Source of the DNA: an uncultured bacterium
Lineage (GTDB): Bacteria; Hinthialibacterota; Hinthialibacteria; Hinthialibacterales; JAKPRU01
Assembly (NCBI GenBank): GCA_964612675.1
Contig: CAZTDD010000026.1
Span: 1-59,258, forward strand
DNA length: 59,258 bases
Direction: 5' to 3'
The notes under the pieces were generated by a model. The model did no database searches. It saw only the letters and a list, made by a program, of their open reading frames with translations, and was not told the origin of the DNA. Positions 3,547 to 59,258 of this stretch are shown in pieces. Made by a program: the position numbers and the translations under genes. Positions within the stretch are counted from its first letter, which is position 1, and every line of letters begins with the position of its first letter.

Positions 3547-4299
3547 CTACGCGGTCACGGCGGCCATTACCTCATCCGGTATATCAAAATTCGCGTAAAC
3601 ATTCTGCACGTCATCGTGCTCTTCCAGATACTCCATTAACTTGAGCATCGTTTCCGCATTCTTGCCTTCCAGCTGGATCGTATTCGCCGGGATCATGGTA
3701 ATCTCCGCCATTTCGGGAGTAATCCCCAGACCGGTTATGGCATCTTTGACCGATTCAAAGTCCGGCACTTCAGTAACAACCTCAAAAATGCCGTCTTCTT
3801 CCTTGACATCTTCCGCACCAGCCTCAATAGCTGCTTCCATCATCGCATCTTCATCCTGGACGGCGGATCGATTGAATGTGATAAGCCCTTTCCGGTTGAA
3901 GAGATAGGATACGCAGCCCGATTCCCCGAGGTTTCCACCGTATTTTGAGAAAAGGTGCCGAATCTCGGCGGTTGTCCGGTTTTTGTTGTCGGTGACCGCC
4001 TCAACAAACACGGCGACACCTCCGGGGCCGTACCCTTCGTAGCTGACCTCTTCGTAGCTGACGCCTTCAATTTCGCCGGTACCCTTTTTGATCGCGTTGT
4101 CGATATTCTTGGCGGGCATATTGGCGTTCTTCGCCGCGCCCATGGCGGTACGCAAACGCGGATTCATGTCCGGGTCGCCGCCGCCTTCACGTGCGGCAAT
4201 GGTGATCTCCTTAATGAGCTTAGTGAAGATCTTGCCACGCTGCGCATCCATCTTCGCCTTCTTATGCTTAATAGTGCTCCACTTCGAGTGCCCTGACAT
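3547..4299 (-). CDS. yebC: YebC/PmpR-family transcriptional regulator
   Basis: N-terminus [28 protein letters not shown] and full-length similarity to the DUF28/YebC family. Confidence 0.93.
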
Positions 4300-10992: not shown

Positions 10993-11070
10993 AAAGGTTG
11001 TGAAACAGGAAGGCACAAAGGAGATACGAAGACACGAAAAGGCAAGGAAACCGACTCGAAAAAAGGCCGG

Positions 11071-11321
11071 ATGACATATACAGTCAAAATAACAAACCGG
11101 GCGAAAAGAGACCTGAAGTCAATCCCCGCAAGGGATAGAGATGTCATCGCTGAAGGAATCGACGGACTCGGAACCGATCTTCGTGGGAACGTCAAACGGT
11201 TGACCCGTTATAGCTTTGAGTATCGATTACGGATCGGTGACTATTGAGTACTATTTGACGTTGAGAACAGCGTTATCATTATTCACAGGATTGCGTTGCG
11301 TCGAGACTTATACCAAGGGCT
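11071..11321 (+). pseudogene. RelE/ParE-family toxin disrupted by an in-frame TGA (codon 59) and a lost native stop
   Basis: MTYTVKITNRAKRDLKSIPARDRDVIAEGIDGLGTDLRGNVKRLTRYSFEYRLRIGDY-stop-VLFDVENSVIIIHRIALRRDLY matches the RelE/ParE N- and C-terminal consensus. TGA at 11245-11247. The frame then runs on past the antitoxin ATG. Confidence 0.65.
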
Positions 11322-11335
11322 GATGGAGGCAGACC

Positions 11336-11629
11336 ATGAGAAAACTGGAATTGACTCCGAGGGTTTTGGAAAAAGACGGCAAGAAGATGTTTGTTGTTTT
11401 GCCTTACGAACAGTTCACTGAATTGGCGGAGCGCCTGGAGGAATTGGAAGACCTGTGCGACTTGAGAGAGGCAAAACTGGAGGCTGTCGGCGAGGATTAC
11501 CTCTCATGGGAGAGTGTGAAAGAGGAATTGGCAATTGGAACGGGTGATGCACAGAATATTAAAGTCACCAGTCAGAGTTTCTACATAGGTAAGTATGAGG
11601 TGACGCAGGCGCAATGGGAACTGGGCTGA
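11336..11629 (+). CDS. Phd/YefM-family antitoxin with a C-terminal fragment of an FGE-sulfatase domain
   Basis: KMFVVLPYEQFTELAERLEELEDL..SWESVKEEL resembles the Phd/YefM family. The last ~20 aa (KVTSQSFYIGKYEVTQAQWE) are a divergent copy of VTISKPFYIGKYEITQAQWK from the FGE gene at 46098-46934. Confidence 0.6.
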   Translation: MRKLELTPRVLEKDGKKMFVVLPYEQFTELAERLEELEDLCDLREAKLEAVGEDYLSWESVKEELAIGTGDAQNIKVTSQSFYIGKYEVTQAQWELG

Positions 11630-11658
11630 TTGACATCCTTTATCTCCCGATAGATAAT
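11630..11658 (+). promoter_or_regulatory. sigma70-like promoter TTGACA-N17-GATAAT(CCT) for the vapBC pair
   Basis: TTGACA at 11630-11635, GATAAT at 11653-11658. AAGGAGGG RBS at 11744-11751 before the ATG at 11761. Confidence 0.5.
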
Positions 11659-11760
11659 CCTAATTGTTGATTTTCAATTTAACGAGTTTTCTTCGGGGGA
11701 TTGTGTGTGCATTGCCGACGCGGTTTCATGATAGACAAAGACTAAGGAGGGAATAGGATC

Positions 11761-12195
11761 ATGCCAATTAGAGTCTTGTTGGACATACCTGAGAGCGCGT
11801 TCTCACTGTTTTCCGGAGACGCGGACGAGTTCGTTCGGGAGATGCGGATTGCAGCGGCTGTGAAATGGTTCGAGATGGGGAAACTCTCCGAGTCGAAAGC
11901 GGCGGAGCTGACTGGAATGAGTCAGGAGGAGTTTGTCCATACTCTGCGTCGGTACGGTGTGTCGCCATTCCAAAGCGATTCGGTGGGAGAAACGCGGGAA
12001 GAAAACTCCAGCCAATTTCCGCATGACTTCTGGCAATCGCCGACTATCGAGGAATTGGCCGCTGCGCAAGGAGTGGGACCTGTTCAAGATGTCGGGTCAC
12101 TCAGTGGAACCTGGCCGGGAGAACCTAACGACGGTTTCGAAGAAACCATCGGGGATCTCCGGCAGGAAGACGTGATGCGAGAAAGCCGCCCATGA
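11761..12195 (+). CDS. UPF0175-family VapB-like antitoxin with a C-terminal extension
   Basis: IRVLLDIPESAF...AVKWFEMGKLSESKAAELTGMSQEEFVHTLRRYGVSP fits the UPF0175 signature. 4-nt ATGA overlap with the downstream PIN gene. Confidence 0.7.
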   Translation: MPIRVLLDIPESAFSLFSGDADEFVREMRIAAAVKWFEMGKLSESKAAELTGMSQEEFVHTLRRYGVSPFQSDSVGETREENSSQFPHDFWQSPTIEELAAAQGVGPVQDVGSLSGTWPGEPNDGFEETIGDLRQEDVMRESRP

Positions 12196-12608
12196 GCGTC
12201 TCCAGGATTATCCTCGATACGAATGTAGTGAGTTACCTTATGCGTGGCGGACTGATTGCGGAGGCATACGGAAAACGTGTACAGGGCCGCGTCGCAGCCA
12301 TATCGTTTATCACCGTCGGTGAGCTGTATTACGGTGCGGAGAACGCGAACTGGGGTGCAGATAAGAGGCAGCAGTTGGAGGAGACTCTCCAGAATTTCGT
12401 TGTCGTTCCCTTCGATAACGAGATCGCGCGCGCCTATGGTAGGATCACCGTTCAGAGAAAGCGAGCCGGAAGGCCGATCTCTTTACATGATGCCTGGATT
12501 GCGGCCTGTGCCGTAAGGCATGATCTGCCGTTGCTAACACACAATCCTAGAGATTTTCAACACATCAGCCACCTGCAGGTAGTAACCGAAACGATCCAGG
12601 CACATTGA
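12192..12608 (+). CDS. vapC: PIN-domain ribonuclease toxin VapC
   Basis: ILDTNVV N-terminal acidic motif and PIN fold residues (D at 9, E ~43, D ~100). Confidence 0.85.
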   Translation: MSVSRIILDTNVVSYLMRGGLIAEAYGKRVQGRVAAISFITVGELYYGAENANWGADKRQQLEETLQNFVVVPFDNEIARAYGRITVQRKRAGRPISLHDAWIAACAVRHDLPLLTHNPRDFQHISHLQVVTETIQAH

Positions 12609-12816
12609 GAATTGATGGATCGAAAGCGAAGTGTACCCCGGCGATCGGCGTCCGAATACTATCTGAATCCGGATGGTCCGGATGGAAGGCTATTCGGGTC
12701 AAATTTTCTCCAGGGGCGTTGCCCTGGCTATCGTACTTCACCCCGTTGGGGTGAAACACAAGAAATCCCGCCTCTTGTGCGTTTCGCACGCGGGTAACGA
12801 TCCATTACACCGCAAC

Positions 12817-12854
12817 TCTTCTGAAATATCCTATGTCTTCTGAAATAGCCTATT
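12817..12854. repeat. tandem 19-bp direct repeat TCTTCTGAAATA[TG]CCTAT overlapping a -35 element
   Basis: Two adjacent copies immediately upstream of, and overlapping, TTGACA at 12853. Confidence 0.6.
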
Positions 12855-12882
12855 GACACGCTGCATCCGGGGGAGGGATAAT
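12853..12882 (+). promoter_or_regulatory. near-consensus sigma70-like promoter TTGACA-N18-GATAAT(CCT)
   Basis: TTGACA 12853-12858 and GATAAT 12877-12882. The same GATAATCCT extended -10 occurs at 11653. Confidence 0.5.
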
Positions 12883-12897
12883 CCTACTGTCATCGAG

Positions 12898-13040
12898 TTG
12901 AGCAAGTAGCGAGTTCGCTGCTGGGAGGGCGAGCCTCCCGGCGAGCCGAAAAGCATACTTTGTTGGGAGGGCGAGCCTCCCGGCGAGCCGGACAGTATCC
13001 GAAACTCGGCTCAGCAGGAGCTTCGCCCTCCCGACTCAAT
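12898..13040. mobile_element. MITE-like ~143-bp element carrying three GGGAGGGCGAGCCTCCCGGCGAGCCG hairpin units (two direct, one inverted), flanked by 9-bp direct repeats G[TA]CATCGAG
   Basis: Hairpin units at 12923-12948, 12965-12990 and, inverted, 13007-13032. Flanking direct repeats at 12889-12897 and 13041-13049. The same unit family recurs at 41262-41476. Confidence 0.45.
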
Positions 13041-13151
13041 GACATCGAGGATAATCCTGCAATTGGATTTCTGTCTTACCCGGAAGCGTTTTCTCAGAGG
13101 GTTGTGTGCTGTTCTGCCTCTGCCTTCCAGATCGTAGGTTTTCCTCCCGCT

Positions 13152-13199
13152 GGTCCAGGAGTTGAACACCTGGACCTGTTTCTCTTTGTTCTTTTTCTG
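13152..13199 (+). terminator. intrinsic terminator (GGTCCAGG-9nt-CCTGGACC + T-tract)
   Basis: 8-bp GC-rich stem followed by TGTTTCTCTTTGTTCTTTTTCTG. Plus-strand only. Confidence 0.55.
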
Positions 13200-13337
13200 T
13201 GCTTTCGCGGCTCTTTCGTGTCTTCGTGTTTCAAGATTCTTCCGGTCTGTGTCGTTGTGCTGCCGCGCACTCTCAATTCCTCTGCACAAAGATCGGTTTG
13301 TCAATCCGTGCCTGTCGGCTCCCAAAAACGTGGTACC

Positions 13338-14015
13338 CTATTTCTCTTCTTTACTGTGCGCTTTCAGGACGCTTTTGCCCACAGGGCTTGTGCCTTCACC
13401 CAAGGAATACCGAAAGACTTCCTTTACCGCTCCTCTGACTTTTGGGTGATACCAATGCTCCCGCGTGACTTTGACTGTGCCTTCTCCACCGTCGCGGACA
13501 AACGAAATCGTCTCATCTCTTTTGACATGCATGCAATTCTCAAACTTGCCCGCAGGGACCTCCAGCGTAACGTCGTCCACCCGTTTCGCCTTGATTTTCT
13601 GGGTAAAGGTGCGCCCTTCTCCCATCATAAAGCGCGACTCGAATTCCTTCTCCTCGCCGGGCTTCAAATTCATATTGTATACGGGGTACGCAGGTTCTAT
13701 ACGTACGGTCGTGTCGCCGACTTCGATTCGATCGCACATACCGCTCTTATTCAGGTATAGCGTCGCCGGGCGATCGTCATTTTCCCCCCATTCGTCTCGT
13801 ATCAACCAGCGCTTCTCTTCTGCTTCTCCCTGAATCGAGACTACTTCCAGAACTCGATTGCCGACAATTTCCCGGTCGGGAGGCCGCCACGGCATCGGAC
13901 CTTCATGTTCGTAGACCCATTTTTCACCAACAACCCACTCATCGGCTGCATCGACTGCAATCACTGCGGTTCCTGCGATCAGAATCCCAAGAAGGAATAC
14001 TGTTAGCCTTTGCAT
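13338..14015 (-). CDS. secreted hypothetical protein
   Basis: Signal peptide MQRLTVFLLGILIAGTAVIAVDA. AGGGAGA RBS. Upstream in-frame Ms lack an RBS. Confidence 0.6.
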   Translation of the reverse strand: MQRLTVFLLGILIAGTAVIAVDAADEWVVGEKWVYEHEGPMPWRPPDREIVGNRVLEVVSIQGEAEEKRWLIRDEWGENDDRPATLYLNKSGMCDRIEVGDTTVRIEPAYPVYNMNLKPGEEKEFESRFMMGEGRTFTQKIKAKRVDDVTLEVPAGKFENCMHVKRDETISFVRDGGEGTVKVTREHWYHPKVRGAVKEVFRYSLGEGTSPVGKSVLKAHSKEEK

Positions 14016-14266: not shown

Positions 14267-15880
14267 ATGGGAACAATGAAACGCTGCGCACACTTTTTCC
14301 ACAACCTACGGACCGTTTTGCCAATGATCCTTGTGGTAGCCATGACAACAGGAACCGTCTTCGCACAGCAGACGCAGATAAAGTGGCGGGCTTTATTCGA
14401 TCAGACCCAGGGCCAAACCGGCACCTGGACGCCATTCCCGTTTCCCGGTCTGCCCGACGACTGGAGTGGCAGCCTGGCCCAATCGTTCGAGGTCAGTGAG
14501 CCCTTCATGGGCGTAGGCATCAGCAGCCCGACCTGGAACGGCCAGGGCGCAGGCTACTGGATGGCGCTCTACGAATGGACAGGAGACTACGCCTCCTCCG
14601 TCGAGGGCATTCCGATTATGGAGAAGGAGTTCTCCGACCTGGCCGACAACGCCGTCAATACCATGACATGGGACGAACCAGCCCCGCCGGGGCAGTATCT
14701 CCTTGTAACGGATGGACCGGTGCCATCCGACACAGGGAACGTGGGGCACTGGGGCTGGGTCAACTCCTCCTTCGCCACCGGTGATTTCCCTGCCGCGTTT
14801 CAAAACGGGGATTATCTCGACCTGGTTTATGAAGCCCCAACATTGGATGTCCGCGTCGGCTATGTGAGCATACGTACATTCACCGTGGTCGAGGAATTCT
14901 ACACAATGCAGGGAGACGACCACTCGCCGATCGATCTGTTGGGTGGAAGACATGTTGGACAACGATTCGCCGCCACTGCTCCTTTCGAAGGAGTAGAGGT
15001 TCACGGCCCGACATGGTCGGTCGACGGACAAAAGGGTATGACGATACGTTTGTGGTCCTGGGCGGGCTCGTATCAGGCAACCGTCGACCAGGACCCGTTG
15101 GCGGTTTCGGTTCTCGAACAACTGGACGATAACGATTGGTTCCCATGTGTGGCCGACACAACATTGGAACCGGGTGTCTATTTCTGGGAAGCGTCGGAGC
15201 CGACCAACCCCTTCAACCCAGACGATCGCCAAATCGGCGTTTGGCTCTCAAATCAGAGTCTCTATGCGGATGGGGAAGCCTATATTAACGGTGAACCCGC
15301 TCAAGAAGTCAGCGCTACGTGGGTTCGTCTGTTCGGTGGGCCAGACCAATCCGGTACGTGGACACCTTTCCAGTTTCCCGGCCTGCCGGACGATCGATCC
15401 GGAAGCCTGGCCCAGAATTTCGAGGCAACTGAACCGTTCGTCGGTGTCGGTATTCTCAGTCCAACGTGGAACGGTGCCGGTGCCGGGTATCGGATGACAC
15501 TGTTTGAATGGACAGGCGACTATGAGTCCTCCGTCGCCGGAGAGGTTCTCGCCCGGCAAACGTTCAACAACATCACCGACAACGGCCGCAACGACCTCGT
15601 GTGGGATGCACCTCTCGAGCCGGGGCAGTATTTGCTGGTGACGGATAATCCCGTCCCGTCCGACACCGGTCTGGTCGGGCACTGGGGCTGGGTGTTTTCA
15701 CCGTACGCCGTCGGCGATGTCCCGGCAGCGTTTGAAAACGGATGGTTTGCGGACGAGATTTACGAAACGCCCAGTTTAGACGTGTATCTCGCGGTTCCGA
15801 GCGAGCAGGCGACAGGAAAGGACTTTGAATCGAGGTCCATTATTGATGAAACGAGTATTGGCTCGTGGTCGCTCTATTAA
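14267..15880 (+). CDS. secreted protein made of two tandem ~170-aa homologous modules
   Basis: Signal peptide. TGTWTPFPFPGLPDDWSGSLAQSFEVSEPFMGVGISSPTWNGQGAGYWMALYEWTGDYASSV is repeated as SGTWTPFQFPGLPDDRSGSLAQNFEATEPFVGVGILSPTWNGAGAGYRMTLFEWTGDYESSV. ...QYLLVTD.PVPSDTG.VGHWGWV... is also duplicated. Confidence 0.75.
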   Translation: MGTMKRCAHFFHNLRTVLPMILVVAMTTGTVFAQQTQIKWRALFDQTQGQTGTWTPFPFPGLPDDWSGSLAQSFEVSEPFMGVGISSPTWNGQGAGYWMALYEWTGDYASSVEGIPIMEKEFSDLADNAVNTMTWDEPAPPGQYLLVTDGPVPSDTGNVGHWGWVNSSFATGDFPAAFQNGDYLDLVYEAPTLDVRVGYVSIRTFTVVEEFYTMQGDDHSPIDLLGGRHVGQRFAATAPFEGVEVHGPTWSVDGQKGMTIRLWSWAGSYQATVDQDPLAVSVLEQLDDNDWFPCVADTTLEPGVYFWEASEPTNPFNPDDRQIGVWLSNQSLYADGEAYINGEPAQEVSATWVRLFGGPDQSGTWTPFQFPGLPDDRSGSLAQNFEATEPFVGVGILSPTWNGAGAGYRMTLFEWTGDYESSVAGEVLARQTFNNITDNGRNDLVWDAPLEPGQYLLVTDNPVPSDTGLVGHWGWVFSPYAVGDVPAAFENGWFADEIYETPSLDVYLAVPSEQATGKDFESRSIIDETSIGSWSLY

Positions 15881-15957
15881 CCCATCGCGAGCCCCATACC
15901 GTCGTTGCCGGCGATTTGAGCAAGAAAGGGCGCGCTTGAGGAACAAAGGGGCACGCT

Positions 15958-15995
15958 GGTCCAGGAGTTGAACTCCCGGACCGGCAATTTCCTTC
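15958..15995 (+). terminator. hairpin (GGTCCAGG-AGTTGAACT-CCCGGACC) downstream of 14267-15880, same family as 13152
   Basis: Shares 28/30 nt with the hairpin at 13152. Weaker T-tract. Confidence 0.4.
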
Positions 15996-17952: not shown

Positions 17953-18264
17953 CGCGTTCCTCCACCAAGCCGTTTGTTCCCAACCGATTCTTATGATTGA
18001 TTGGTTTTTTAGTGATCCTCGCCCATGGCGAAACTTTCACTTTGTGTTGGAAATGATGCCAGACCGGAACCACGCGGACAAGGGATCTTGGAAAAGAGAT
18101 CGTCACCGTGCAACCATTCAGACACGTTAGTTGTATATCTATGCGAATCAATTGGTTACCATTCACGACTCACTCCAGATACTCCGCTCCGAAGAAAAGG
18201 GCACCATGACCGTCATTGCGATCGAATCCGTCATTCCGAGGAGCGGACCGTCGTTCCGAGTCCC

Positions 18265-18406
18265 GGACCGTCGGAGCCGGTGATTTGGGAAAGAAAACGC
18301 GATCTCCGTTGCCGTCATGGCGAGCGAAGCGTGGCCATCTCGTTTTTCCGGTTCAACGGTGAGATTCCCACGTCGCTTCGCTCCTCGGAATGACGGATTC
18401 GGGAGC
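18265..18406 (+). repeat. 142-nt nested-hairpin element, copy 1 (partner at 53394-53535)
   Basis: About 90 % identical to copy 2. Outer stem GAGCGAAGCGTGG/CCACGTCGCTTCGCTC, inner stem ATCTCG/[CT]GAGAT. Ends 84 nt upstream of the radical SAM gene. Confidence 0.7.
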
Positions 18407-18489
18407 GTTTTCTCACAAGGCCCTTAGGATCAAAAACCCTGCCATCGCTGTCCCGTCCCCTGGTACACTTCCTGTAGAGGAGAAAGTCG

Positions 18490-31393: not shown

Positions 31394-32086
31394 TCAGCCG
31401 CTTTGCGCGATGGTTGCGATACATTGATCCTCGCGTACAACCTTCCGGGGACCGCCGTCGTATCCGGTTGACCAATCGTGCGGCGCGGCGATTTCGGTCA
31501 ATCGATCCAGCATGCCGATTGCCTTTGCACGGTCATAGATCAACTGCCAACCACACTCGAGATCCGGATTCACTTCACATTTCCCATCGCGGGAACCTCC
31601 ACACGGACCATTGAACAACCGTTTGGCGCAGCGGCTGATCGGGCAAATTCCCGCGAATTCTCCGAGTCGGCAATTGCCGCAACCGACACACTTCTCGGTC
31701 CAAACGCCTTGCGATTCGAGAATCCCGATGAATTGCGTATTGAGGCCCGGATAAACCGGGGTTTGCGGAAAGCGCTCTGCCAGCGCCTGAACCCCCGCCC
31801 CGCAACCCAATGAGCAGATTGCGTCGTACCCGGCGGCCCGCTGGGCCAGAATATCGATAAATGCGTCTTCGCATTGGCGTTCAATAGTACATTCGTCTAC
31901 AACAACATTTCCACGACCGGCCAATTTCAGGGACATGCGTAACGCCGCCCCCAGGATATTTGTTTCACGTTCCCCGCCGGCCAAACAGACCGTAACACAG
32001 GTACCGCATCCGACAAGCAACACCCGGTTGTGGTCTTTGACCATATCGCGAATTTCCGGAACTGTTTTTCGATCCGCAACAATCAT
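31394..32086 (-). CDS. MetV-like Cys-rich protein (MTHFR C-terminal-type domain)
   Basis: Cys clusters GCGTCVTVC, CGAG, CVGCGNC and NGPCGG...CE resemble the acetogen MetV family. Confidence 0.55.
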   Translation of the reverse strand: MIVADRKTVPEIRDMVKDHNRVLLVGCGTCVTVCLAGGERETNILGAALRMSLKLAGRGNVVVDECTIERQCEDAFIDILAQRAAGYDAICSLGCGAGVQALAERFPQTPVYPGLNTQFIGILESQGVWTEKCVGCGNCRLGEFAGICPISRCAKRLFNGPCGGSRDGKCEVNPDLECGWQLIYDRAKAIGMLDRLTEIAAPHDWSTGYDGGPRKVVREDQCIATIAQSG

Positions 32087-32165
32087 AGAATTTCTCCAAA
32101 AAGGAATTCCCAGCGATGAATCGCTGGGCTATTATCGTTCGTCCATCGGACGGTCCGTCAGGCTT

Positions 32166-32618: not shown

Positions 32619-35600
32619 TTATCCTTTGTGCCAGCGCGGCGGGGCGACTCCCACAAGTTCAGGGTAAGCCAATTCCGTTTCCTCTTTTCTCGCGCCGAGC
32701 AAGCTGTTTACCGCCCCCAGGATTTGCGCGTTCATGTAGTGACGCAGTTGAATTGCCCTGGCGGGACACTCTGCGGTGCAACTCCCACACCCCATACAAA
32801 CCGCCTGTTGAATGACCGCTTTGTTGTCCTGACCGACGGTTGGGGCCATGTATGGGCAAACATGAACGCAGGTCATACAGGAGATGCATTGGTCGGGATC
32901 GACCCATGCGATTTGCGCACTGACCGGCATTTCCTTCTTTGAGAGGATGGAGGCGGCACGCGCGGCCACCGCGTTCGCCTGAGAAATCGTCTCAGTGATG
33001 AATTTCGGCGCATGAGCGGTACCACAGAGGAAGAGTCCTTCGCTCGCGAAATCGACCGGACGCAGTTTCATATGGGCTTCGAGGAAGAAACCATCTGCGT
33101 TTAGCGGTACCCGAAGCAATTCCGACAATTCTTCTCGATCCGCTCGTGGGACCATCGGTGCGGCAAGAACAACCGTGTCCGGATGGATTTCCATTTGGCT
33201 GTTGAGAGAAGGTTCATTAAACCGAAGACAGATGCGTTGTCCTTCGACCGTCAACTCGGGAGGAGTTTCCTGCTCGTAACGAACGAAGAGTACACCTTTT
33301 TCACGCGCCTCGCGGTATGCCGCCTCACGGAATCCGTAGGTGCGCATGTCGCGGTATAGGATCACGATCCGCGCCTTGGGATACCGCTCCAGAAGCAACA
33401 GAGCGTTCTTAACGGCAGTTGTACAACAAACACGACTGCAATACGGATGCTCGTCGTTACGCTGCTCGACACACTGAATCATCGCAATCGTGGGCTCTTC
33501 CGGGATTCCCAGATCCTGCCGCGCCATCCGGTCGGTCAGTTCGAGCTGTGTCACCACACGATTGCTCTTACCGTAACCGAATGAAGACGGCTTCTTTTCC
33601 GTCGCGCCGGTCGCAACCACCACAACGCCGTGTTCAACCTCTTCGACATTCCCGTTCGAACTCAACTGCGAGGTGAATTCGCCAATGTGTCCGTCAACCT
33701 TGTCGATATGTGTATTGAGGTGAACCGTGATCAGCGGGTTTTTCTTTACATTCTCAACGGTATGGGACAGGAATTTCTGAATGTCGTCGCCATCGAGAGT
33801 ACGGTGGATCTGTTGAGCAGTGCCTCCAAGGCGTTCGCCTTTCTCGACCAGATGAACCGGAAATCCCTGCTCCGCCAATGCCAAAGTCGCTGTCATTCCC
33901 GCAATGCCTCCACCGACCACAAGGGCGGCATTGTTGATAGGAACGGTTTCCTCCTCCAGAGGCTGGAGGTTTGCAGCGCGACCGACAATCATACGAATGA
34001 GGTCAATCGCCTTCTCTGTGGCTTTCTGCGGATTGTCGGAATGAACCCAGGAACATTGATCGCGAATGTTCGCCATCTCCAGAAGGTACGGATTCAAACC
34101 GGCGTCCCGTAATGTGTCACGGAAGATCGGTTCATGGGTTCGGGGTGTACAGGAAGCGATAACCACGCGATTGAGGTGCTCATCACGGATGATTTTCTTG
34201 ATTTGATCCTGCGTATCGTCCGCGCAGGTATAGACACTGTGATCCGCGAAAACCACGTTCGGTAGTCCTCGTGCGCGTTCAACAACCTTTTCGATATCGA
34301 CCACGGAGGCGATGTTGCTGCCGCAGTGACAGATGAAAACACCGACTCTCGGCGGCTCGTCCGTGATGTCTCGTTCCTGTGGATAGGATTTCGTACGGAC
34401 TTCCGTGCCCCGTGCCGCTGAAAGCAACGCCATTGCGCGGGCCGCCGATCCGGTTGCCTGCATCACCGTATCGGGGATGTCTTTCGGCTCCTGAAAAACC
34501 CCGCCCACAAAGACACCCGGACGGGAAGTCTCGAGCGGAGCCAGTTCACGGGTTTTCGCGAAGCCCCATTGGTTTAGTTCGACGCCAATCTTTGCCGCTT
34601 GCTCCCGAATCGACTCGCTCGGTTCCAAGCCGAGTGAGAGGATAACCATGTCGAACTCTTCTTCGACCTGCTTTAGGTCGGAGCTGAAGTAATTCAACCG
34701 AAGGTTATGCGTGCCGGGCATTTCGTAGGTCCGAGAGACAAAAGACCGGACATAATGAATGCCCATTTTCTTTGCGCGCTCGCAGTAGCGGTCAAAGTCC
34801 TTGCCGAAAGCACGCAGATCGAGAAAGAACACCGTCATGTCCAGATCCGGCTCGTGCTCTTTCGCCAGGATGGCCTCTTTTGTTGCCGCCATACAGCAAA
34901 TCGACGAACAGTAATCGTTACCGCATCCGTTGTCGCGCGAACCGACACATTGAATGAACGCCAATCGTTTGGGTTTCTTGCCGTCGGATGGTCGGACGAT
35001 GTGCCCTTCGGTCGGTCCGGAAGCGGACAGGATTCGTTCAAACTGCACATTCGTGACAACGTTGGGAGCAAATCCGAAACCGAACTCGCCCCTGCGCGTT
35101 GCATCGAACGCATCGAAACCCGGTGTGAGCAAGACCGCACCAACGTCTAGATCGAAAGACTTCTCAGGTTCGAAATGATTGATCGCCCCGGCCTGGCAGG
35201 CTTCCACACACAGCATGCATTCCGCGCACCCCGCACATGCCAGACAACGCCGCGCTTCCGCCTGCGCTTCGTCTTCACTGTATGTCGCTTCCACCTCCCG
35301 AAAGTCCGATAGCCGTTCGACAACAGGGACTTCCTGATGTGGAACGCGAGGAGCGCGTTTTGTTCTCTTTTTGATTTTTGCGAGTTCCTCATCCGAAAGT
35401 GGGTTCAACCGTTTCTCGCGCTTCGAGAGTCCCTCTTGAACCGGCCTTTCGGCAAGATAGTTGTCGATAGCCTGTGCCGCCTGTTTCCCGTGCGCGATTG
35501 CGTCGATCACGCTTGACGGGCCGACGACCACATCGCCTCCGGCAAAGACATTCTCACGTGATGTAACCATCGTGACCTCATCGGTCTCGATGGTCCCCCA

Positions 35601-37145
35601 GCGCGATGTTTTCAGTTCGAAAAGCTGTGCGAGTTTCTGGTCGGCCGATTGACTAACCGCCGGAATGAGAGTGTCTGCCTCAATTGTGAACTCGGAACCT
35701 TCGACCGGCACCGGACGTCGGCGGCCGCTTTCATCGGGTTCGCCCAATTCCATGCGGATGCATTCGATGGCGGATACACGATTGTTCTCGGATCGAACTT
35801 TCGTAGGCGCTGCGAGATAGTGGATTTTGATATCCTCAGCCAAGGTAGCGTCGATTTCCGATTCGTCGGCAGGCATCTCTTGGCGCGTACGTCGATACAC
35901 AATAGTGACTTCGTCCGCTCCGAGCCGTTTCGCCGTTCGCGCAACGTCGACCGCCGTGTTGCCGCCCCCGATAATCACAATTCGTTTCCCTGCCCCTGTC
36001 GGTTCACCGAGGGTGTGTTTTCGGAGGAAATCGACACCGTGGACAACTCCCTCGGTATCCTCTCCTGGAATCCCGAGTTTTCGACTGTGATGAGCCCCCG
36101 TCCCCACGAAGATCGCATCGAATTGGCTCTCCATTTGTTCGACGGAAATGCCGTCGCCAACAGGAGTCGCCGTCTTGAATTCGACACCGAGAGATCGAAT
36201 CCCGTCGAGATCCCGCTTCAGGATATCGGGTGGAAGTCTGTATTGGGGGATTCCGACTGCCAACATTCCCCCCAGAACGGGCAGCGCCTCGAAAACGGTA
36301 ACGTTATGGCCCTTAAGAGCCAATGAGTGGGCCGCTGCCAGCCCTGCTGGTCCGGAGCCGACAATCGCAACCGATTTGCCGGTCGATTGAATTCCTTCAG
36401 GTGGTTCGCTTGAAGGATACAGATCCATTGCAAACCGTTTCAGGCCGCGAATATTGACCGGTTCGTCGATCGCGCCTCGATTGCATTCACTCTCACAGGG
36501 GTGAAAACAGACACGCCCGCAGATCGAAGGAAGAGGATTCTCGCGGCGAATTACTTCAGCGGCCTCTTTGAATTTTCCGTCGCCGATAAGAGCAACGTAG
36601 GCTTGGACACTGTGATCGATGGGACAGCCCGAACTGCAGGTCGCACGACCGTTTTTCTGGATGACATTCGCATTCGGAGCCGCCTGGGCGTATACACGAT
36701 CGATTGCCTTCCGTGTCCCGAGACCGGCGTCGAACTGACTCGGAAGATCCACGGGACATACTTTTGTACAGTCGCCGCATGCCGTACATTTATCGACGTC
36801 GATAAAACGCGGCCGTTGACGAATCGTGGCTTTGAAATTCCCTTGGTCTCCTTCAAGTCCGTCCAACTCCGCCATTGTATAAACGTCGATGTTGTGATCC
36901 CTCAAACATTCGACGAGTTTTGGTGAAATAATACAGGTAGCGCAGTCGCCGGTTGGGAACGTTTTATCGAGGCGGGACATGCCTCCACCGACAGCCGCGT
37001 TCTGCTCAACGAGATAAACACGAAACCCGGCCGCCGAAAGATCCAGGGAAGCCTGTATCCCGGCGACGCCCGCACCGGAGACCAACACCGCGCCGCGCGG
37101 TTCTTTGCCATTTGTCGAGGATGTCTTCTGCTGGACTTCACTCAT
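32619..37145 (-). CDS. 1508-aa HdrA-family fusion: HdrA(N) + ferredoxin + GltD/NfnB-like NAD(P)H-FAD module + ferredoxin + HdrA(C) + second complete HdrA-like module + ferredoxin
   Basis: GAGVAGIQASLDL and TFPTGDCATCII (HdrA). ICGRVCFHPCESEC with GSGPAGLAAAH and RMELGEPDESGRRRPV (GltD-like). CVGSRD..YCSSICCM (HdrA core). A second AALVVGGGIAGM..CVEQRNDEHPYCSRVCC module follows. Stop/start overlap with hdrB. Confidence 0.85.
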   Translation of the reverse strand: MSEVQQKTSSTNGKEPRGAVLVSGAGVAGIQASLDLSAAGFRVYLVEQNAAVGGGMSRLDKTFPTGDCATCIISPKLVECLRDHNIDVYTMAELDGLEGDQGNFKATIRQRPRFIDVDKCTACGDCTKVCPVDLPSQFDAGLGTRKAIDRVYAQAAPNANVIQKNGRATCSSGCPIDHSVQAYVALIGDGKFKEAAEVIRRENPLPSICGRVCFHPCESECNRGAIDEPVNIRGLKRFAMDLYPSSEPPEGIQSTGKSVAIVGSGPAGLAAAHSLALKGHNVTVFEALPVLGGMLAVGIPQYRLPPDILKRDLDGIRSLGVEFKTATPVGDGISVEQMESQFDAIFVGTGAHHSRKLGIPGEDTEGVVHGVDFLRKHTLGEPTGAGKRIVIIGGGNTAVDVARTAKRLGADEVTIVYRRTRQEMPADESEIDATLAEDIKIHYLAAPTKVRSENNRVSAIECIRMELGEPDESGRRRPVPVEGSEFTIEADTLIPAVSQSADQKLAQLFELKTSRWGTIETDEVTMVTSRENVFAGGDVVVGPSSVIDAIAHGKQAAQAIDNYLAERPVQEGLSKREKRLNPLSDEELAKIKKRTKRAPRVPHQEVPVVERLSDFREVEATYSEDEAQAEARRCLACAGCAECMLCVEACQAGAINHFEPEKSFDLDVGAVLLTPGFDAFDATRRGEFGFGFAPNVVTNVQFERILSASGPTEGHIVRPSDGKKPKRLAFIQCVGSRDNGCGNDYCSSICCMAATKEAILAKEHEPDLDMTVFFLDLRAFGKDFDRYCERAKKMGIHYVRSFVSRTYEMPGTHNLRLNYFSSDLKQVEEEFDMVILSLGLEPSESIREQAAKIGVELNQWGFAKTRELAPLETSRPGVFVGGVFQEPKDIPDTVMQATGSAARAMALLSAARGTEVRTKSYPQERDITDEPPRVGVFICHCGSNIASVVDIEKVVERARGLPNVVFADHSVYTCADDTQDQIKKIIRDEHLNRVVIASCTPRTHEPIFRDTLRDAGLNPYLLEMANIRDQCSWVHSDNPQKATEKAIDLIRMIVGRAANLQPLEEETVPINNAALVVGGGIAGMTATLALAEQGFPVHLVEKGERLGGTAQQIHRTLDGDDIQKFLSHTVENVKKNPLITVHLNTHIDKVDGHIGEFTSQLSSNGNVEEVEHGVVVVATGATEKKPSSFGYGKSNRVVTQLELTDRMARQDLGIPEEPTIAMIQCVEQRNDEHPYCSRVCCTTAVKNALLLLERYPKARIVILYRDMRTYGFREAAYREAREKGVLFVRYEQETPPELTVEGQRICLRFNEPSLNSQMEIHPDTVVLAAPMVPRADREELSELLRVPLNADGFFLEAHMKLRPVDFASEGLFLCGTAHAPKFITETISQANAVAARAASILSKKEMPVSAQIAWVDPDQCISCMTCVHVCPYMAPTVGQDNKAVIQQAVCMGCGSCTAECPARAIQLRHYMNAQILGAVNSLLGARKEETELAYPELVGVAPPRWHKG

Positions 37146-38029: not shown

Positions 38030-38592
38030 CGCTTCCTCTCCTCTTCTTGGGCTCGGCGAAAGACCTCTCTAACCTCGCCCGCGCTTCCGCTGCGCGATGG
38101 GAGAAGAGAGAGTTTTCCTTTCGAGAACATTTTCGGTGCTTTGTCTACGTCGGAAAAGAAGTCGCCGGATCGGATTTTGTAGGCGGTCAACATGCCCAGT
38201 TCGAAAACGCGCCCGTGACGGCGAACGCTCTGCAGAAACGAACGATTGAACCGCTCTCCGCGCGAGTCGGGAACCGACACTTTTCGCTCAACCGCCATCA
38301 TCCGCAGTGTGTCCATGACGGCGGCGATGTCAATTCCCATAGGGCAGCGCGTTGTACAGGCTTCACACGACGCACACAGCCAGATAGCGCGCGATTCGAG
38401 AGCCTTCGATTCCTCGCCGAGATGAATCAGACGCATAATCTGACTGGACAGAAAATCCATTTCCGGAGCAACCGGGCAGCCGGTTGAACACTTGTGGCAT
38501 TGGAAGCACGCACTAACCGGAGTGCCGCTGCGGCGTTCCACCTCGTGCAAAAAGCGAGTCTCTTTCCATTCAACTGTTGAAGTCATCTTCAT
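38026..38592 (-). CDS. hdrC: heterodisulfide reductase subunit C (2x[4Fe-4S])
   Basis: CFQCHKCSTGCP and CASCEACTTRCP. Confidence 0.88.
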   Translation of the reverse strand: MKMTSTVEWKETRFLHEVERRSGTPVSACFQCHKCSTGCPVAPEMDFLSSQIMRLIHLGEESKALESRAIWLCASCEACTTRCPMGIDIAAVMDTLRMMAVERKVSVPDSRGERFNRSFLQSVRRHGRVFELGMLTAYKIRSGDFFSDVDKAPKMFSKGKLSLLPSRSGSAGEVREVFRRAQEEERKR

Positions 38593-41261
38593 TCACTCAA
38601 TAATTCAAAATCGGGTTCCGGCTCTTCCTGTGCCATGGCGCTGGGAACGACTTTCCGATACACCTCGAATGGTTTCCGCAACACGCCATCGACAGTCAAA
38701 AGGTCTCGTTCGATCTCTATACCGAACAGACGCTCGTTCTCTCGCAGATAGGGTAGTATCAATTTCCAGTCTTCGGCTGTAAGCGATTGGTACGCTCCGG
38801 CGTTGAGCTGTTCCTGCACAAGCGTGCGATGCGGATCGCGAACGTAAATCGCGCCTCCGGAGGCCAGAGAAAGCAGATTGCTGCCCGGGTAAGGCAAATC
38901 CAGAGGAACGACACGGCCGTTCTCATCGAATCGGATACCATTCACAATTGCGAATCCGCCTCCCTTGAGTGGGTCGCCCGCCATGAACGACTCCGCCAGG
39001 AAATCGAGAGCGGTTCCGTTAATCACCACCCGGGGTTTCCCGACAGCGTTGATCATCGGCCTCCCGGCGGCGTTCCCCATGACATAGAATTCCCCGCCCT
39101 TCGCACCGTAAAGAAACGTCTGACCGACGTCGCCGTAAATCACGATTTTGCCTCGTTTGGCAATTTGGCAGAGCTGATCCTGCGCGTTGCAATGAACAAG
39201 CGCTTCGAGACCGTCTAGACCGGACCCGAGATAATCGCCGGGATTGTCATAACAATCCACACGAAGCCCGTCGGAGCTGGGACCGAAACCGGCCGCGTGA
39301 AAACGCGTCCCCCGCGTGTTGTAATGGATCAACCATTTCCAGCCGAGCTGGTAGGCATCGACCGCGAGTTTCGCGTCGCACGTCGGACCTTCGGGTGTAA
39401 AACCTCTCGCGTCAATCAAAAGGACTCTTTCGCCCGGGCGAGGTTCGCGGAGATCTTCACGTATCTCCCAATTCACTCTGCGACATGTTGACTCCGCTGT
39501 ATCGGTAAGAAGCGGTTGGCTCTCGAAAATCTTTCCAAGCCCGTCACGCAGAATGGTCAGAATGGAACTTCGCTTTTTCTCTCCGGTTGGATACTGACGG
39601 TCTAAACAAAGGGTCAATGCCTGGATACCGAGAAGCGGGTTGCTCTCTCCGCTTCGTTTTGCCGTTTCATCGACAAACCACCGAAGGCGGTCGTATGTCA
39701 TTTCCGCGAGAGAATCGCGAAAATACTCAAAAATGACTACAGGATTGTTACTCTCAATCGCACGTTGAATTTCCGCAGCGTCTCGCTCGCGTTCCTGCTC
39801 GGAAGGGGTCTTTAGTTCGGCGGTTGGTTTGTAAGCAACCTGATTTTGAGGCACCGTTACAGGAAGGCCGAACTTATTCGTCACTTGCATCGAGTAATGA
39901 CCGTTGCTGCCCGCAGAGCCGTTCGACGGGACAACATTCATCGCAAATGCCCCACCGTCCGAGTAACTTCCACCGCGCGCGTTCCAGTACATATCCGCAA
40001 CAGGCCGGAAACGGTTGTCTTCGGACGACAAACTGGCCAACGTCGCATCAATCGCCTGTTTTTCGGAACAGATCAACCCGGTAGAGACTTCGCCTTCCTG
40101 TAACGCGAAAACTTGCGGCCGCAGCATCGCTGTATCCGTGATTCCAACCAATTGATAGCCGGCTTCTTTTCCGAGATTGCGCGCAATGATGAAAAACCAC
40201 GGACCGTCGGGCGATCCGTGCATATGTGCCGCCTGGATTTGACGATAAATCCGACGCTTGTCCGCAGCCAACCGGTCGAAGTCCAGTTCGGTAGTCGGTG
40301 CGAGCGCTTCGATGATGTATTCCAGGGGATACTTGTATGTCCGGTTCATTAAATCGAAAAGAAGTACCGAGACTTCAGTATCTGTAATAAACAATGGAAA
40401 TAGATTCCGCTGCGCAAGATACTCGCTGACCGAAACATAATTGGCAAAGTCGCCGTTATGTACCAGCGCTTCGTTCATCCCAATGAACGGGTGGGCTCCG
40501 CCGGGATGCCATACACGACCACGCGTTGGATAGCGCTGGTGAGCGATCCACACATGGGCACGTAAATCCGGCATCCGGTAATACTGAACCGCAGCCTCGG
40601 CGTATCCCACGATTTTAATGATAAAGAGATTCCGAGCGTGCGAGAGAACGAAAGCCCGCTTCTCGCCCAAAGAAGAATAGAATTCCGTATTCAACAGAAA
40701 CGAATTCTGAAAAACAAATTCATCCTCGATTTCGCGTTCGGGAAGATGAGTCAGTCCTTTTTCCTGAGCGAACTGTGCGAGGACGTCCGACTTCACACGA
40801 ACGAAATACCGGGCGACTTCCGGGGGTTTGATCTCCAGCAATGGTACGTCCCGGTAATCGTCGACAGTTGGAATCACCCCTCCCTGATGAATATCGAAGT
40901 ATGGCTCGATACGGCTCTTTTCGACATCCTTCTGCGCCTCAGGATCCAAGAGGGCGATTTGGAGGATATAGTCTTCGTCGATCTCTTTTTGCGTGACGCC
41001 CAGATCCTCGGGCACAATCCCGCATGCGGCAATTCCGCCTCCCCGTCCGTTTCCGCGATTCCGCATTTGGATGGAGGGCTCGTAGATGTGACGGCCCCCG
41101 ACAGGGACGGTACAAGCGAATCCCGTCACACCGCAGCCGCCCTCGGCTTCCGTGGGTTTTGGGAACCAGGATTCGCCCTCTTTAGGCCGCAGATGGGATC
41201 GCGACCGAATCAGCATATTGGCCCGATTCAAGTTATTGATTTCCATTGTCTTTGAACTCAT
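38589..41261 (-). CDS. glutamate-synthase-like fusion: class-II glutamine amidotransferase (GltA-like) + GXGXG domain (GltC-like)
   Basis: The GGCGVTGF Ntn-type Cys is preceded by ~40 aa. C-terminal IVIYGDVGQTFLYGAKGGEFYVMGNAAGRPM...NGTALDF GXGXG repeats. Confidence 0.75.
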   Translation of the reverse strand: MSSKTMEINNLNRANMLIRSRSHLRPKEGESWFPKPTEAEGGCGVTGFACTVPVGGRHIYEPSIQMRNRGNGRGGGIAACGIVPEDLGVTQKEIDEDYILQIALLDPEAQKDVEKSRIEPYFDIHQGGVIPTVDDYRDVPLLEIKPPEVARYFVRVKSDVLAQFAQEKGLTHLPEREIEDEFVFQNSFLLNTEFYSSLGEKRAFVLSHARNLFIIKIVGYAEAAVQYYRMPDLRAHVWIAHQRYPTRGRVWHPGGAHPFIGMNEALVHNGDFANYVSVSEYLAQRNLFPLFITDTEVSVLLFDLMNRTYKYPLEYIIEALAPTTELDFDRLAADKRRIYRQIQAAHMHGSPDGPWFFIIARNLGKEAGYQLVGITDTAMLRPQVFALQEGEVSTGLICSEKQAIDATLASLSSEDNRFRPVADMYWNARGGSYSDGGAFAMNVVPSNGSAGSNGHYSMQVTNKFGLPVTVPQNQVAYKPTAELKTPSEQERERDAAEIQRAIESNNPVVIFEYFRDSLAEMTYDRLRWFVDETAKRSGESNPLLGIQALTLCLDRQYPTGEKKRSSILTILRDGLGKIFESQPLLTDTAESTCRRVNWEIREDLREPRPGERVLLIDARGFTPEGPTCDAKLAVDAYQLGWKWLIHYNTRGTRFHAAGFGPSSDGLRVDCYDNPGDYLGSGLDGLEALVHCNAQDQLCQIAKRGKIVIYGDVGQTFLYGAKGGEFYVMGNAAGRPMINAVGKPRVVINGTALDFLAESFMAGDPLKGGGFAIVNGIRFDENGRVVPLDLPYPGSNLLSLASGGAIYVRDPHRTLVQEQLNAGAYQSLTAEDWKLILPYLRENERLFGIEIERDLLTVDGVLRKPFEVYRKVVPSAMAQEEPEPDFELLSE

Positions 41262-41476
41262 ATCCGTCTCGGCTCGGCGGGAGCCTCGCCCTCCCGGGCC
41301 TGTCGCCTTCTGAATTTGGCTCCCCTAGTCCTTCTCGGCTCGGCAGGAGCCTCGCCCTCCCGGGCCTGTCGCCTTCCGGATTTGTCTCACCTAGTCCTTG
41401 AACTCATGTTCGTCTCGGCTCGGCGGGAGCCTTGCCCTCCCGGGCCTGTCGCCTTCCGGATTTGTCTCACCTAGTT
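41262..41476. repeat. three tandem 66-80-bp units, each with a GGGAGGGCGAGGCTCCCGCCGAGCCG hairpin (minus-strand sense), between two operon genes
   Basis: Units start near 41267, 41333 and 41413. Each also duplicates the first ~14 nt (ATGAGTTCAAG) of the downstream gene start. Confidence 0.75.
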
Positions 41477-48250: not shown

Positions 48251-48760
48251 ACGAAGAACCTCGAAATGCGTTTACTGAATTATTCGGAGGAAGTGCCATA
48301 ATGAACGAAAACACCGAACAGAAACCAAAGCCGGGAATCTGTATACCATGGGAAGAAAAACTGAAAGAAATTCCCGAGATCCAAGGCGATCATGAAATCG
48401 TTAAACAAAAATGGGAAGAAAACGAGTTTTTTGCACACCTGTATGTGTGGCATTGTCTTGTCTCGTTTTAATGAGGATTTTGATTCCGTCACAAGCCCAC
48501 GCGAAACGTGGTAATCGTAGGGTCGGCTCACGGGCGTTATATCGGAACATTCCTTCCGACTCATTATCACGTAAGCCCGTAGCCCACCACTATCTGTTCG
48601 GAATTCGCACCAAGCAACCGGTTGGTGGGCTACGGGCTCCAGTAGACATTAACCGGACACCGCAGCGCGATACGACGCCCGTGAGCCCACCCTACAGCCG
48701 TCCACCAGACTTCTTGCCCCCCGTCAGATTTTGGCGGTCCCGCAAAAAGTCCGGAGCGTT

Positions 48761-48970
48761 CTTCTCCCTCTCCCTCTGGGAGAGGGCCGGGGTGAGGGAA
48801 CGTTGCATTTTCCGGTGACGTTCCATTGTACGTGACAGACCCCTGTCATCATCCAACCCCTTTGCCGCTGATTCATTTGCTGTCTCTGACGAATACACAG
48901 GCTAGTCATGATAAACGAACCCGATGCAATTAACGCCCCTCACCCTACCCCTCTCCCGGGGGGAGAGGGA
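48761..48970. repeat. inverted pair of CCCTCACCC..CCCTCTCCC-N3-5-GGGAGAGGG palindromic units flanking ~135 bp
   Basis: Units at ~48761-48797 (reverse orientation) and ~48938-48970. The same family occurs at 59093-59258. Confidence 0.6.
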
Positions 48971-53287: not shown

Positions 53288-53393
53288 GAAGGCTGAATCG
53301 AAAGTTCTTGTAAGCATAAAGCCGAGGAAATCGGCGATTTAAAAAGAAAATGTGAGTGTTTGCATCCGGTTACTTTGCCGTCATCGGGAGCCA

Positions 53394-53535
53394 CGGACCG
53401 TCGGAGCCGGTGATTTGAGGAAGAAACCGCGGTCCCCGTTGCCGTCATGGCGAGCGAAGCGTGGCCATCTCGTTTTGTCCGATTCAACAGCGAGATTCCC
53501 ACGTCGCTTCGCTCCTCGGAATGACGGATTCGAGC
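53394..53535 (+). repeat. 142-nt nested-hairpin element, copy 2
   Basis: Same length and about 90 % identity to 18265-18406. A partial extra arm lies at ~53374-53393. Ends ~100 nt upstream of the SDR gene. Confidence 0.7.
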
Positions 53536-53637
53536 GCGTAGGGTGGGTTAGCGACGATCTGTCTGCAGACACTCCCGACGCGCACTTCAGAGGAGCGTAA
53601 CCCACCGAAACCACTTTATCGCTTAAGAAAAAAAACA

Positions 53638-59246: not shown

Positions 59247-59258
59247 GTCTTCTTTTCT
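59093..59258. repeat. two copies of the 55-bp unit CCCTCTCCCAGAGGGAGAGGGGACTGGTTGTCTTTGGCAGCAAGTCTTCTTTTCT, 96 bp apart, running into the window edge
   Basis: Copies at ~59108-59162 and ~59204-59258. An internal palindrome CGGAGAGCGGACTCTCCG lies between them. Confidence 0.65.

Follow-up and report, generated by a model that had tools for sequence, protein, structure and literature searches.

The locus considered here, positions 12817-13199 of a 59,258-nt contig stretch (the window), very probably contains, at 12923-13032, a cluster of three repetitive extragenic palindromic (REP) units, resembling a bacterial interspersed mosaic element (BIME) or a REP doublet forming a hairpin (REPIN), rather than a dedicated gene for a small RNA (sRNA). 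The units belong to a family with the 26-nt consensus CGGCTCGGCRGGAGCCTCGCCCTCCC. This family is regarded as REP because arrays of its unit flank the gene for a REP-associated tyrosine transposase (RAYT) in all seven RAYT loci examined, the arrangement that defines a REP/RAYT system ("REPtron"). Further characteristics of REPs and BIMEs are present as well: a short unit able to form a hairpin (26 nt, within the range of about 20-40 nt), many dispersed and mostly extragenic copies, and occurrence as singles, as inverted doublets, and as mosaic clusters. Furthermore, the cluster occupies the 3' intergenic space between vapC and the convergent gene 13338-14015, a position that is typical for REPs.

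A sequence-only reading of the locus had described a "143-bp element" with three hairpin motifs, two direct and one inverted, and had suggested that it may be repeat-derived. This holds: the element comes from repeats and belongs to a mobile family. The core of this element consists of three copies of the 26-nt unit, two oriented one way and one the opposite way. Units 1 (12923-12948) and 2 (12965-12990) carry the canonical CGGCTCGCCGGGAGGCTCGCCCTCCC on the minus strand; they are identical, lie 42 nt apart in direct orientation, and represent the "type III" variant (C8/G15). Unit 3 (13007-13032, plus strand, CGGCTCAGCAGGAGCTTCGCCCTCCC) is a "type II" variant (A7/T16) and is inverted relative to the other two, so that units 2 and 3 constitute a REPIN-like hairpin with a 16-nt loop. 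GGGAGGGCGAGCCTCCC, the hairpin motif, has exact copies at 12923 and 12965 and an inverted one with three mismatches at 13016-13032. The features listed in the sequence-only reading are all present and non-random, at the coordinates given or no more than a base or two away. All three units lie within a larger imperfect palindrome (12889-13043), whose outer 10-bp stem surrounds them and which has a calculated energy of -86.5 kcal/mol as RNA. The window as a whole has six matches to GGGAGGGCGAGCCTCCC, in two clusters, where 0.18 would be expected, and the 26-nt consensus was derived from these six copies. The second cluster lies at 41270-41441 on the plus strand, its three direct units (41270-41295, 41336-41361, and 41416-41441) being embedded in tandem repeats of 66/80 nt. 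This cluster was missed in the sequence-only reading; it makes two REP clusters visible within 59 kb. The region around it (41248-41475) includes the 209-nt gap between genes 41471-43039 and 38589-41261, both on the minus strand, in which the cluster lies. The repeated unit includes a copy of the start region of the downstream gene (GAACTCAT at 41254-41261 and once more at 41400-41407), and the duplication therefore covers the annotated start codon.

The association with RAYT rests on a motif scan of all open reading frames (ORFs) in the loci fetched from genome and metagenome collections. One of these loci, L202, encodes a 149-aa HUH-Y1 protein (MPDHLHL ... YVRNNPVRAGLV) that matches the NCBIfam model NF047646, "REP-associated tyrosine transposase", with 80.1 bits (cut-off 80; E = 1.4e-22), while the Pfam Y1_Tnp model gives no match to it. 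Nine REP units lie on one side of the gene and three on the other. The protein has 1919 homologues at E <= 1e-10, many of them named RayT by the Joint Genome Institute (JGI), and its listed best hits share 56-76% identity with the query. Six further loci were then chosen solely by homology to this RAYT. In L253, 12 units adjoin the RAYT gene; L256 has 2 units upstream and 13 downstream in an array with a 31-nt period; L258 has 3 upstream and 6 downstream, L259 5 and 3, and L260 3 and 1; and in L257, a variant unit shorter by one base is present on both sides. Consequently, unit arrays adjoin the RAYT gene in seven of the seven loci examined, with L257 contributing the variant unit. On the two sides of the gene in L256, L259, and L260, the closest units have opposite orientations. 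The Acidobacteria metagenome-assembled genome (MAG) that supplied L259 also contains a dispersed hairpin of the family, L074. Within the arrays themselves, the 13 units of L256 (2544-2941) are all direct, and those of L253 (973-1535) alternate in a 179-nt repeat. Two other sources of a cognate gene had been considered and were discarded: the recurrent neighbors of dispersed copies belong to ordinary planctomycete paralogue families (DUF1501, PSCyt/PSD1, DUF1559), and the ORFs lying between unit pairs 300-1600 nt apart are mutually unrelated.

By analogy with E. coli TnpA-REP and the Pseudomonas REPINs, the cognate RAYT would recognize the unit as a small single-stranded DNA hairpin. Cutting and rejoining of the unit by RAYT, as in other RAYT/REP systems, would then lead to the spread and clustering of units.

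The family extends well beyond this contig. Scans of a collection holding one genome per species, and of the JGI metagenomes, give counts that are lower bounds: at least 118 MAG stretches contain an exact match to CGGCTCGSCRGGAGSCTCGCCCTCCC, and the exact variant of the window, GGGAGGGCGAGCCTCCCGGCGAGCCG, is found in at least 120 JGI metagenome contigs. About 97 of the 118 listed genome stretches have Planctomycetota-type labels; the remaining labels include Verrucomicrobiota, Acidobacteriota, Armatimonadota (Chthonomonas), Nitrospirales, Ignavibacteria, Binatia, Thermodesulfobacteriota, Alcaligenaceae, and others. Single MAGs supply several unit-bearing contigs. Only 10 viral contigs carry the unit, and the plasmid collection yielded no match. 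String searches of the literature for the unit and for its spurious peptides returned nothing relevant, and we could not find the 26-nt family described in the literature searched. Three loci with the unit (L038, L092, L116), from megabase-scale contigs labeled Ignavibacteria, have 56-59% G+C, a value that seems high for this class and makes the cross-phylum distribution of the unit provisional.

The arrangement of the units was analyzed in the first 118 genome loci, which contain 243 units with no more than 5 mismatches, neighbors being defined as units less than 300 nt apart. Among the 103 neighboring pairs, the orientation "-+" accounts for 72, "++" for 20, and "--" for 11, and "+-" does not occur. 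The typical form is GGGAGGG...CCGAGCCG, a loop, and CGGCTCGG...CCCTCCC; the loops are 7-57 nt long, and neither loop nor flank sequences are related between loci. A cluster holds one to nine units: some units stand alone, others form inverted pairs whose loops vary, and others are strung into arrays. Even though ORFs cover 87% of the DNA on the greedy ORF map used, 86 of the 145 clusters are located outside ORFs, and the gene context of clusters is convergent in 23 cases vs divergent in 6.

How far the similarity reaches was determined by blastn of window positions 12800-13210 against 250 fetched loci. The matches are confined to about 12910-13045 (12920-12950 and 12960-13040), essentially the three REP units; the outer segment, the direct repeats around the cluster, the promoter, and the terminator described below have no relative in these loci. 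Likewise, no conserved promoter or terminator accompanies the REP units among the loci compared. No target-site duplication adjoins the arms of the family hairpins, which show just a weak outward extension of the palindrome. Direct repeats flanking the hairpins within 40 nt are in excess (16 vs 2.5 expected), an excess that, in the cases inspected, arises because other interspersed repeat families are present, for example, the class 3 REP-like CCGAACCGCGACCGTCAGGGAGCGG. The possibility that the REP hairpins serve as intrinsic terminators was also considered and dropped: a T-rich tail (5 or more T in 8 nt) follows only 13 of the 356 hairpin sides. In some of these MAGs (L043 at 4100-4260, L062, and L014), the units are interleaved with the class 3 REP-like CCGAACCGCGACCGTCAGGGAGCGG, with a GTAGGGTGGGC-type unit, and with the simple repeats CTGACCACTGA and TCAGTTGTC, and their intergenic regions are mosaics of several palindromic repeats.

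The unit itself contains a small conserved structure. Nearly all of its positions are more than 95% conserved among the 243 units, the exceptions being positions 1, 7, 8, 10, 15, and 16. When 267 units with up to 6 mismatches are compared, the pair 7/16 is G:C in 228, A:T in 25, and C:G in 4, and the pair 8/15 is G:C in 243, C:G in 14, and T:A and A:T once each. In 66 distinct units, the stem columns 7-9/14-16 show 20 double-change cells vs 3.5 +/- 1.6 in shuffled versions (0 of 500 as high), with 7 extra pair types and pairing in 91.9% of the cells; an alternative 5-bp stem, 2-6/12-16, shows no covariation beyond chance in the same units. Thus, a covarying 3-bp stem closes an RGGA loop, with GGA at positions 11-13 in about 99% of the 243 units, and the 16 flanking bases of the unit are near-invariant. 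The arms of a hairpin are usually of different types: of 94 hairpins, 71 combine a type III (C8/G15) arm with a type I arm, and only 2 have type III on both sides. The constraint therefore acts on individual arms rather than on the pairing of one arm with the other. The cluster in the window, which combines a type II unit with two of type III, fits this heterotypic pattern.

Several points weigh against the assignment to a REP cluster. The 26-mer consensus lacks the 5' GT[AG]G (or CGTC) tetranucleotide that stands at the foot of the classical REP hairpin: neither GTAG nor GTGG nor CGTC occurs in it. However, untagged REP families are recognized in PMC3733652 and in PMC6006769, and the missing GT[AG]G/CGTC tag sets the family apart from the classical subfamilies, not from REPs as a whole. 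In addition, no RAYT gene was found in the 59-kb contig, and the cognate gene would, by analogy with the RAYT loci, be located elsewhere in this genome. The covarying stem is only 3 bp long, and the covariation may reflect a few ancestral events that then spread, the variants being widespread lineages. All of the matching genomes are MAGs with the taxon labels of their submitters, and the gene contexts come from a crude ORF caller. Finally, a REP cluster as such does not explain the strong promoter without an ORF that lies directly upstream, and the two 10-bp direct repeats around the cluster could be the mark of another kind of insertion event.

The gene context and the promoter are as follows. 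An array of toxin-antitoxin (TA) genes occupies 11071-12608 of the window and ends with vapC, a PIN-domain gene (12192-12608). Directly past the vapC stop codon (12608) lies a terminator-like hairpin plus T run on the plus strand (12674-12701; 12 pairs, tail AATTTTCTCC, -13.8 kcal/mol), which, judging from its sequence, is likely the end of the vapBC transcript. Next comes a tandem 19-bp repeat, TCTTCTGAAATA[T/G]CCTAT (12817-12853, plus strand; copies TCTTCTGAAATATCCTAT at 12817-12834 and TCTTCTGAAATAGCCTAT at 12836-12853), which has no further copy in the 59-kb window and which could be an operator or UP-like element. It not only abuts the promoter-like site P2, as had been reported, but also overlaps the first base of the -35 hexamer. 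P2 itself, TTGACA-N18-GATAAT at 12853-12882 on the plus strand, is present as the sequence-only reading had given it and agrees with the consensus at 11 of 12 positions. TTGACA-N16-19-GATAAT has just two matches in 59 kb on both strands (0.03 expected), the other being the vapBC promoter at 11630-11658, and the two promoters indeed have an extended -10, GATAATCCT, in common (TTGACA-N17-GATAATCCT in the vapBC form). In the window, only three sigma-70-like sites score 10/12 or more: P2, the vapBC promoter, and one located 56 nt upstream of gene 14267. Strong promoter matches look predictive here because the two sites other than P2 precede genes.

Two sets of small direct repeats bracket the cluster. 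The bounding repeats G[TA]CATCGAG of the sequence-only reading are there, but they are 10 bp long rather than 9, TG[T/A]CATCGAG, with one mismatch between the left copy (TGTCATCGAG, 12888-12897) and the right copy (TGACATCGAG, 13040-13049). The second set is a perfect 10-bp repeat, GGATAATCCT, with its left copy (12876-12885) overlapping the P2 -10 hexamer and an identical right copy at 13049-13058. This 10-mer holds the quasi-palindrome GGATAATCC; there is a one-mismatch copy of the 10-mer at 11652-11661 and an exact copy, on the minus strand, at 12204-12213. The quasi-palindrome is thus found at 11652, 12204, 12876, and 13049, four sites within 1.4 kb of the TA array, and these overlap the -10 hexamers of both strong promoters (vapBC and P2) and the vapC start; in the remaining 59 kb, the 10-mer is found solely as one-mismatch copies. 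The quasi-palindrome could be an antitoxin operator of the TA module, or simply a duplicated target. An apparent paralogy of the vapBC leader with 13050-13120 did not survive its control: the first local alignment scored 39 vs 20.9 +/- 3.2 in shuffled versions, and after removal of GGATAATCCT, the match ranked 19th of 1172 windows and was not significant. A 30-nt inverted repeat (11021-11050 and 13203-13232; 77% complementary, with a perfect 13-nt core, CGAAGACACGAAA) encloses the whole TA array together with the segment from P2 through the terminator, although this may be due to chance.

At the other end of the locus, the GC-rich hairpin described by the sequence-only reading is present, at 13148-13178, about 100 nt past the REP cluster, while the T tract said to follow it is interrupted. 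The terminator-like element (13148-13200, plus strand; stem CGCTGGTCCAGGAGTTGAACACCTGGACC, -16.3 kcal/mol) has an 8-bp GC-rich stem plus inner pairs and is specific for the plus strand; a consensus terminator scan missed it because its loop exceeds the limit of the scan. The palindrome of its stem has a second copy (15954-15982, plus strand, 27 of 29 bases identical, without a T tract) 74 nt past the stop codon of gene 14267-15880, which the sequence-only reading had also missed. This 29-nt palindrome, CGCTGGTCCAGGAGTTGAAC[A/T]CC[T/C]GGACC, lies in intergenic DNA on the plus strand in both cases (13148-13176 and 15954-15982), with a T-rich tract after the first copy only, and may be another small family of palindromic repeats. 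As the sequence-only reading had stated, the segment has no convincing coding frame: its sole long ORF, 12960-13760, starts inside the repeat, overlaps the convergent gene 13338-14015, and is not credible. The neighboring 225-aa protein has only three distant homologues known to the search, and a comparison of loci through these homologues showed no synteny in common. The same sequence was assembled from short reads in two Logan contigs, which break off at 12753 and 13100 and so flank the REP cluster, a finding compatible with assembly breaks induced by repeats or variants.

Given these features, a P2-driven transcript of about 300 nt is plausible, with roughly even chances that it exists. If P2 fires, the product would be a noncoding RNA dominated by a very stable REP hairpin, and its likeliest consequence would be the generic REP one, a structured RNA segment that is nuclease-resistant or RNase III-sensitive; a specific trans-acting sRNA function is less likely than such a generic effect. 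The more demanding proposal, that the locus is a dedicated noncoding RNA gene starting near 12889 and ending at 13148-13200, with the REP-derived hairpins as its functional structure, is unlikely. It draws on the quality of P2 and the fact that the only other sites of this strength precede genes, on the plus-strand-specific hairpin and T-rich tail 300 nt downstream, on the separate terminator-like site that already closes vapBC, and on the lack of an ORF together with the folding of the 312-nt stretch relative to shuffled versions (z = -4.75). However, this z-score arises because of generic REP repeat hairpins, the palindrome of the terminator stem is repeated elsewhere without a T tract, and REP units elsewhere come without conserved promoters or terminators. 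Nor does the locus have a match in Rfam at the gathering threshold (only microRNA-hairpin noise, E >= 0.08); an exact search for the terminator 25-mer in the JGI metagenomes was negative, and nothing in the 250 loci resembles the locus outside its REP units, a weak test since close relatives of this genome are not among them. There is a still smaller chance that an RNA consisting only of REP sequence has been co-opted behind an active promoter, for example, as a structured decoy or as a processing substrate linked to vapBC; the proposed link is based on the GGATAATCC quasi-palindrome that both promoters carry. Alternatively, P2 might be a fossil or accessory promoter, either the remnant of a lost TA cassette or a source of read-through antisense to gene 13338-14015, with the REP cluster being incidental. 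The TA gene array, the TTGACA and GATAATCCT found in both P2 and the vapBC promoter, and the interrupted T tract, because of which read-through is conceivable, would agree with this idea. Yet 12609-13337 contains no detectable TA gene remnant, the results of tblastn with the four neighboring TA proteins being noise (the best stretch for a decayed TA gene downstream of P2 is the pentapeptide SRIIL), and the similarity to the vapBC leader beyond the 10-mer is the 19th-ranked one mentioned above; the idea is quite improbable.

It had also been suggested that the element may be a mobilized miniature inverted-repeat transposable element (MITE), and this very probably does not hold. In its classical form, a nonautonomous transposon bounded by terminal inverted repeats (TIRs) would have inserted into the -10 region and duplicated either TGWCATCGAG or GGATAATCCT. 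The two 10-bp direct repeats around the cluster, one of them perfect, are what such an event would leave, the ends are able to pair (GTCAT.GAGTT with GACTC.ATGAC), and the vapBC promoter, TTGACA-N17-GATAATCCT, provides an example of the uninterrupted form. Against this, only the 26-nt units recur: neither the outer 12898-12919 segment nor either of the direct repeats is found again in the 250 family loci or elsewhere in the window, and no full-length, constant, TIR-bounded copies were found, the coverage of the query by the 250 loci being zero outside 12910-13045. Furthermore, target-site duplications are missing beside the arms of the family hairpins, the excess of direct repeats within 40 nt belongs to other interspersed repeat families in the inspected cases, and the gene associated with the family is RAYT, whose activity is not known to leave target duplications. 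Taken together, these results make a MITE very improbable. Least probable is an RNA-level protein-binding element, in which hairpins with GGA loops act like CsrA/RsmA sites and transcribed units titrate such a protein. With the near-universal GGA of the loop and the covarying closing stem, the unit hairpin may resemble the CsrA motif obtained by SELEX (selection of ligands from random pools). However, CsrA binding does not explain the equal invariance of the 16 nt around the loop, and the units show no fixed orientation with respect to genes. In the P2 transcript, moreover, UCCC rather than GGA would occupy the loops of two units out of three, and the RAYT association is explanation enough for the unit.

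The interpretation as a BIME/REPIN-like cluster has practical consequences. For annotation, it removes a false lead, as intergenic segments of these genomes that are rich in hairpins, fold well, and lack ORFs are REP clusters, and such clusters may also break short-read assemblies, as at the Logan contig ends. The object at this locus is of an ordinary kind, a REP cluster, but its family has some unusual properties: an untagged 26-nt unit under several phylum labels, a covarying mini-stem, and heterotypic pairing of arms set it apart from textbook REPs. The locus would be of interest chiefly for a REP-only RNA driven by P2 beside the TA array.

The window contains other repeats and one known RNA motif. 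Its only Rfam match at the gathering threshold is an Acido-Lenti-1 RNA (RF01687) at 32109-32152 on the plus strand (37.6 bits vs a threshold of 37, E = 5.8e-5), between genes 31394-32086 and 32619-37145. A repeat element of about 165-200 nt, without an Rfam match, is present at 18218-18420 and at 53378-53540, the copies being 89-91% identical; the first has internal 32-nt inverted repeats (18223-18254 and 18370-18401) and precedes a radical-SAM gene (18490), and the second is located downstream of gene 51323-53287. A palindromic family, CCCTCTCCC(AGA/TCT)GGGAGAGGG with GGTGAGGG-type flanks, occurs at 48759-48800, 48942-48969, 59089-59122, and 59197-59224. A 28-nt inverted pair (48517-48544 and 48668-48695; 89% complementary, GTAGGGT...ACCCTAC) resembles a GTAG-tagged REP-type pair of another family. 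The contig begins with tandem duplicates (10-75 and 121-186, within repeat sequence 10-186), and at its end, 59102-59156 is exactly duplicated at 59204-59258; the repeats at both ends suggest that the assembly stopped in repeats.

Among the closest known systems is the REP/BIME and RAYT (TnpA-REP/YafM) system of E. coli. As there, the unit is short, dispersed, extragenic, and palindromic; it occurs as singles, inverted pairs, and mosaic clusters of alternating variants (compare the Y and Z REPs); arrays surround a single-copy HUH-Y1 transposase gene; and the 3' ends of genes are preferred. Unlike the E. coli REPs, the present unit has no GT[AG]G tag and is built from a 3-bp stem, an RGGA loop, and 16 near-invariant flanking bases, and unlike the classical REPs, which are specific for a species or genus, the same 26-mer is found in MAGs labeled as several phyla. 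Long hairpin repeats that lie in or near transcription units and could alter RNA stability also include the Correia elements of Neisseria and the enterobacterial ERIC sequences. Correia elements can contribute promoter hexamers, and both Correia and ERIC have TIRs, target duplications, and a constant full length, whereas here, only the 26-nt arms are common between loci. The REPINs of Pseudomonas fluorescens SBW25, reportedly described by Bertels and Rainey in 2011, share with the present family the inverted REP pair that forms a long hairpin across a short spacer, which is the dominant arrangement here (72 of 103 pairs) and that of units 2 and 3 in the window; unlike in SBW25, the arms are mostly different variants, giving a mismatched hairpin, the loops are unrelated, and extra direct units are common. 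Finally, a class 3 REP-like unit that is nearly identical in Legionella, Solibacter, and Planctomyces has been reported by Quentin et al. 2018 (PMC6006769) and is a precedent for a sequence kept across very distant lineages. This TnpA-Y1 "REPtron-like" unit is like the present one in its length of about 26 nt, its tiny stem and tetraloop, its high copy number, and its near identity across Planctomycetes, Acidobacteria, and Proteobacteria (PMC6006769). Both units contain CCGAGCCG, and the two are interspersed, as in the flank of L043. However, the class 3 unit differs in sequence (CCGAGCCGCGACCGTAAGGGAGCGG), and the RAYT of the present family scores as a class 2-type REP transposase (DHLH ... 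YVRNNP) without the class 3 signature NHVH ... Y----Q.

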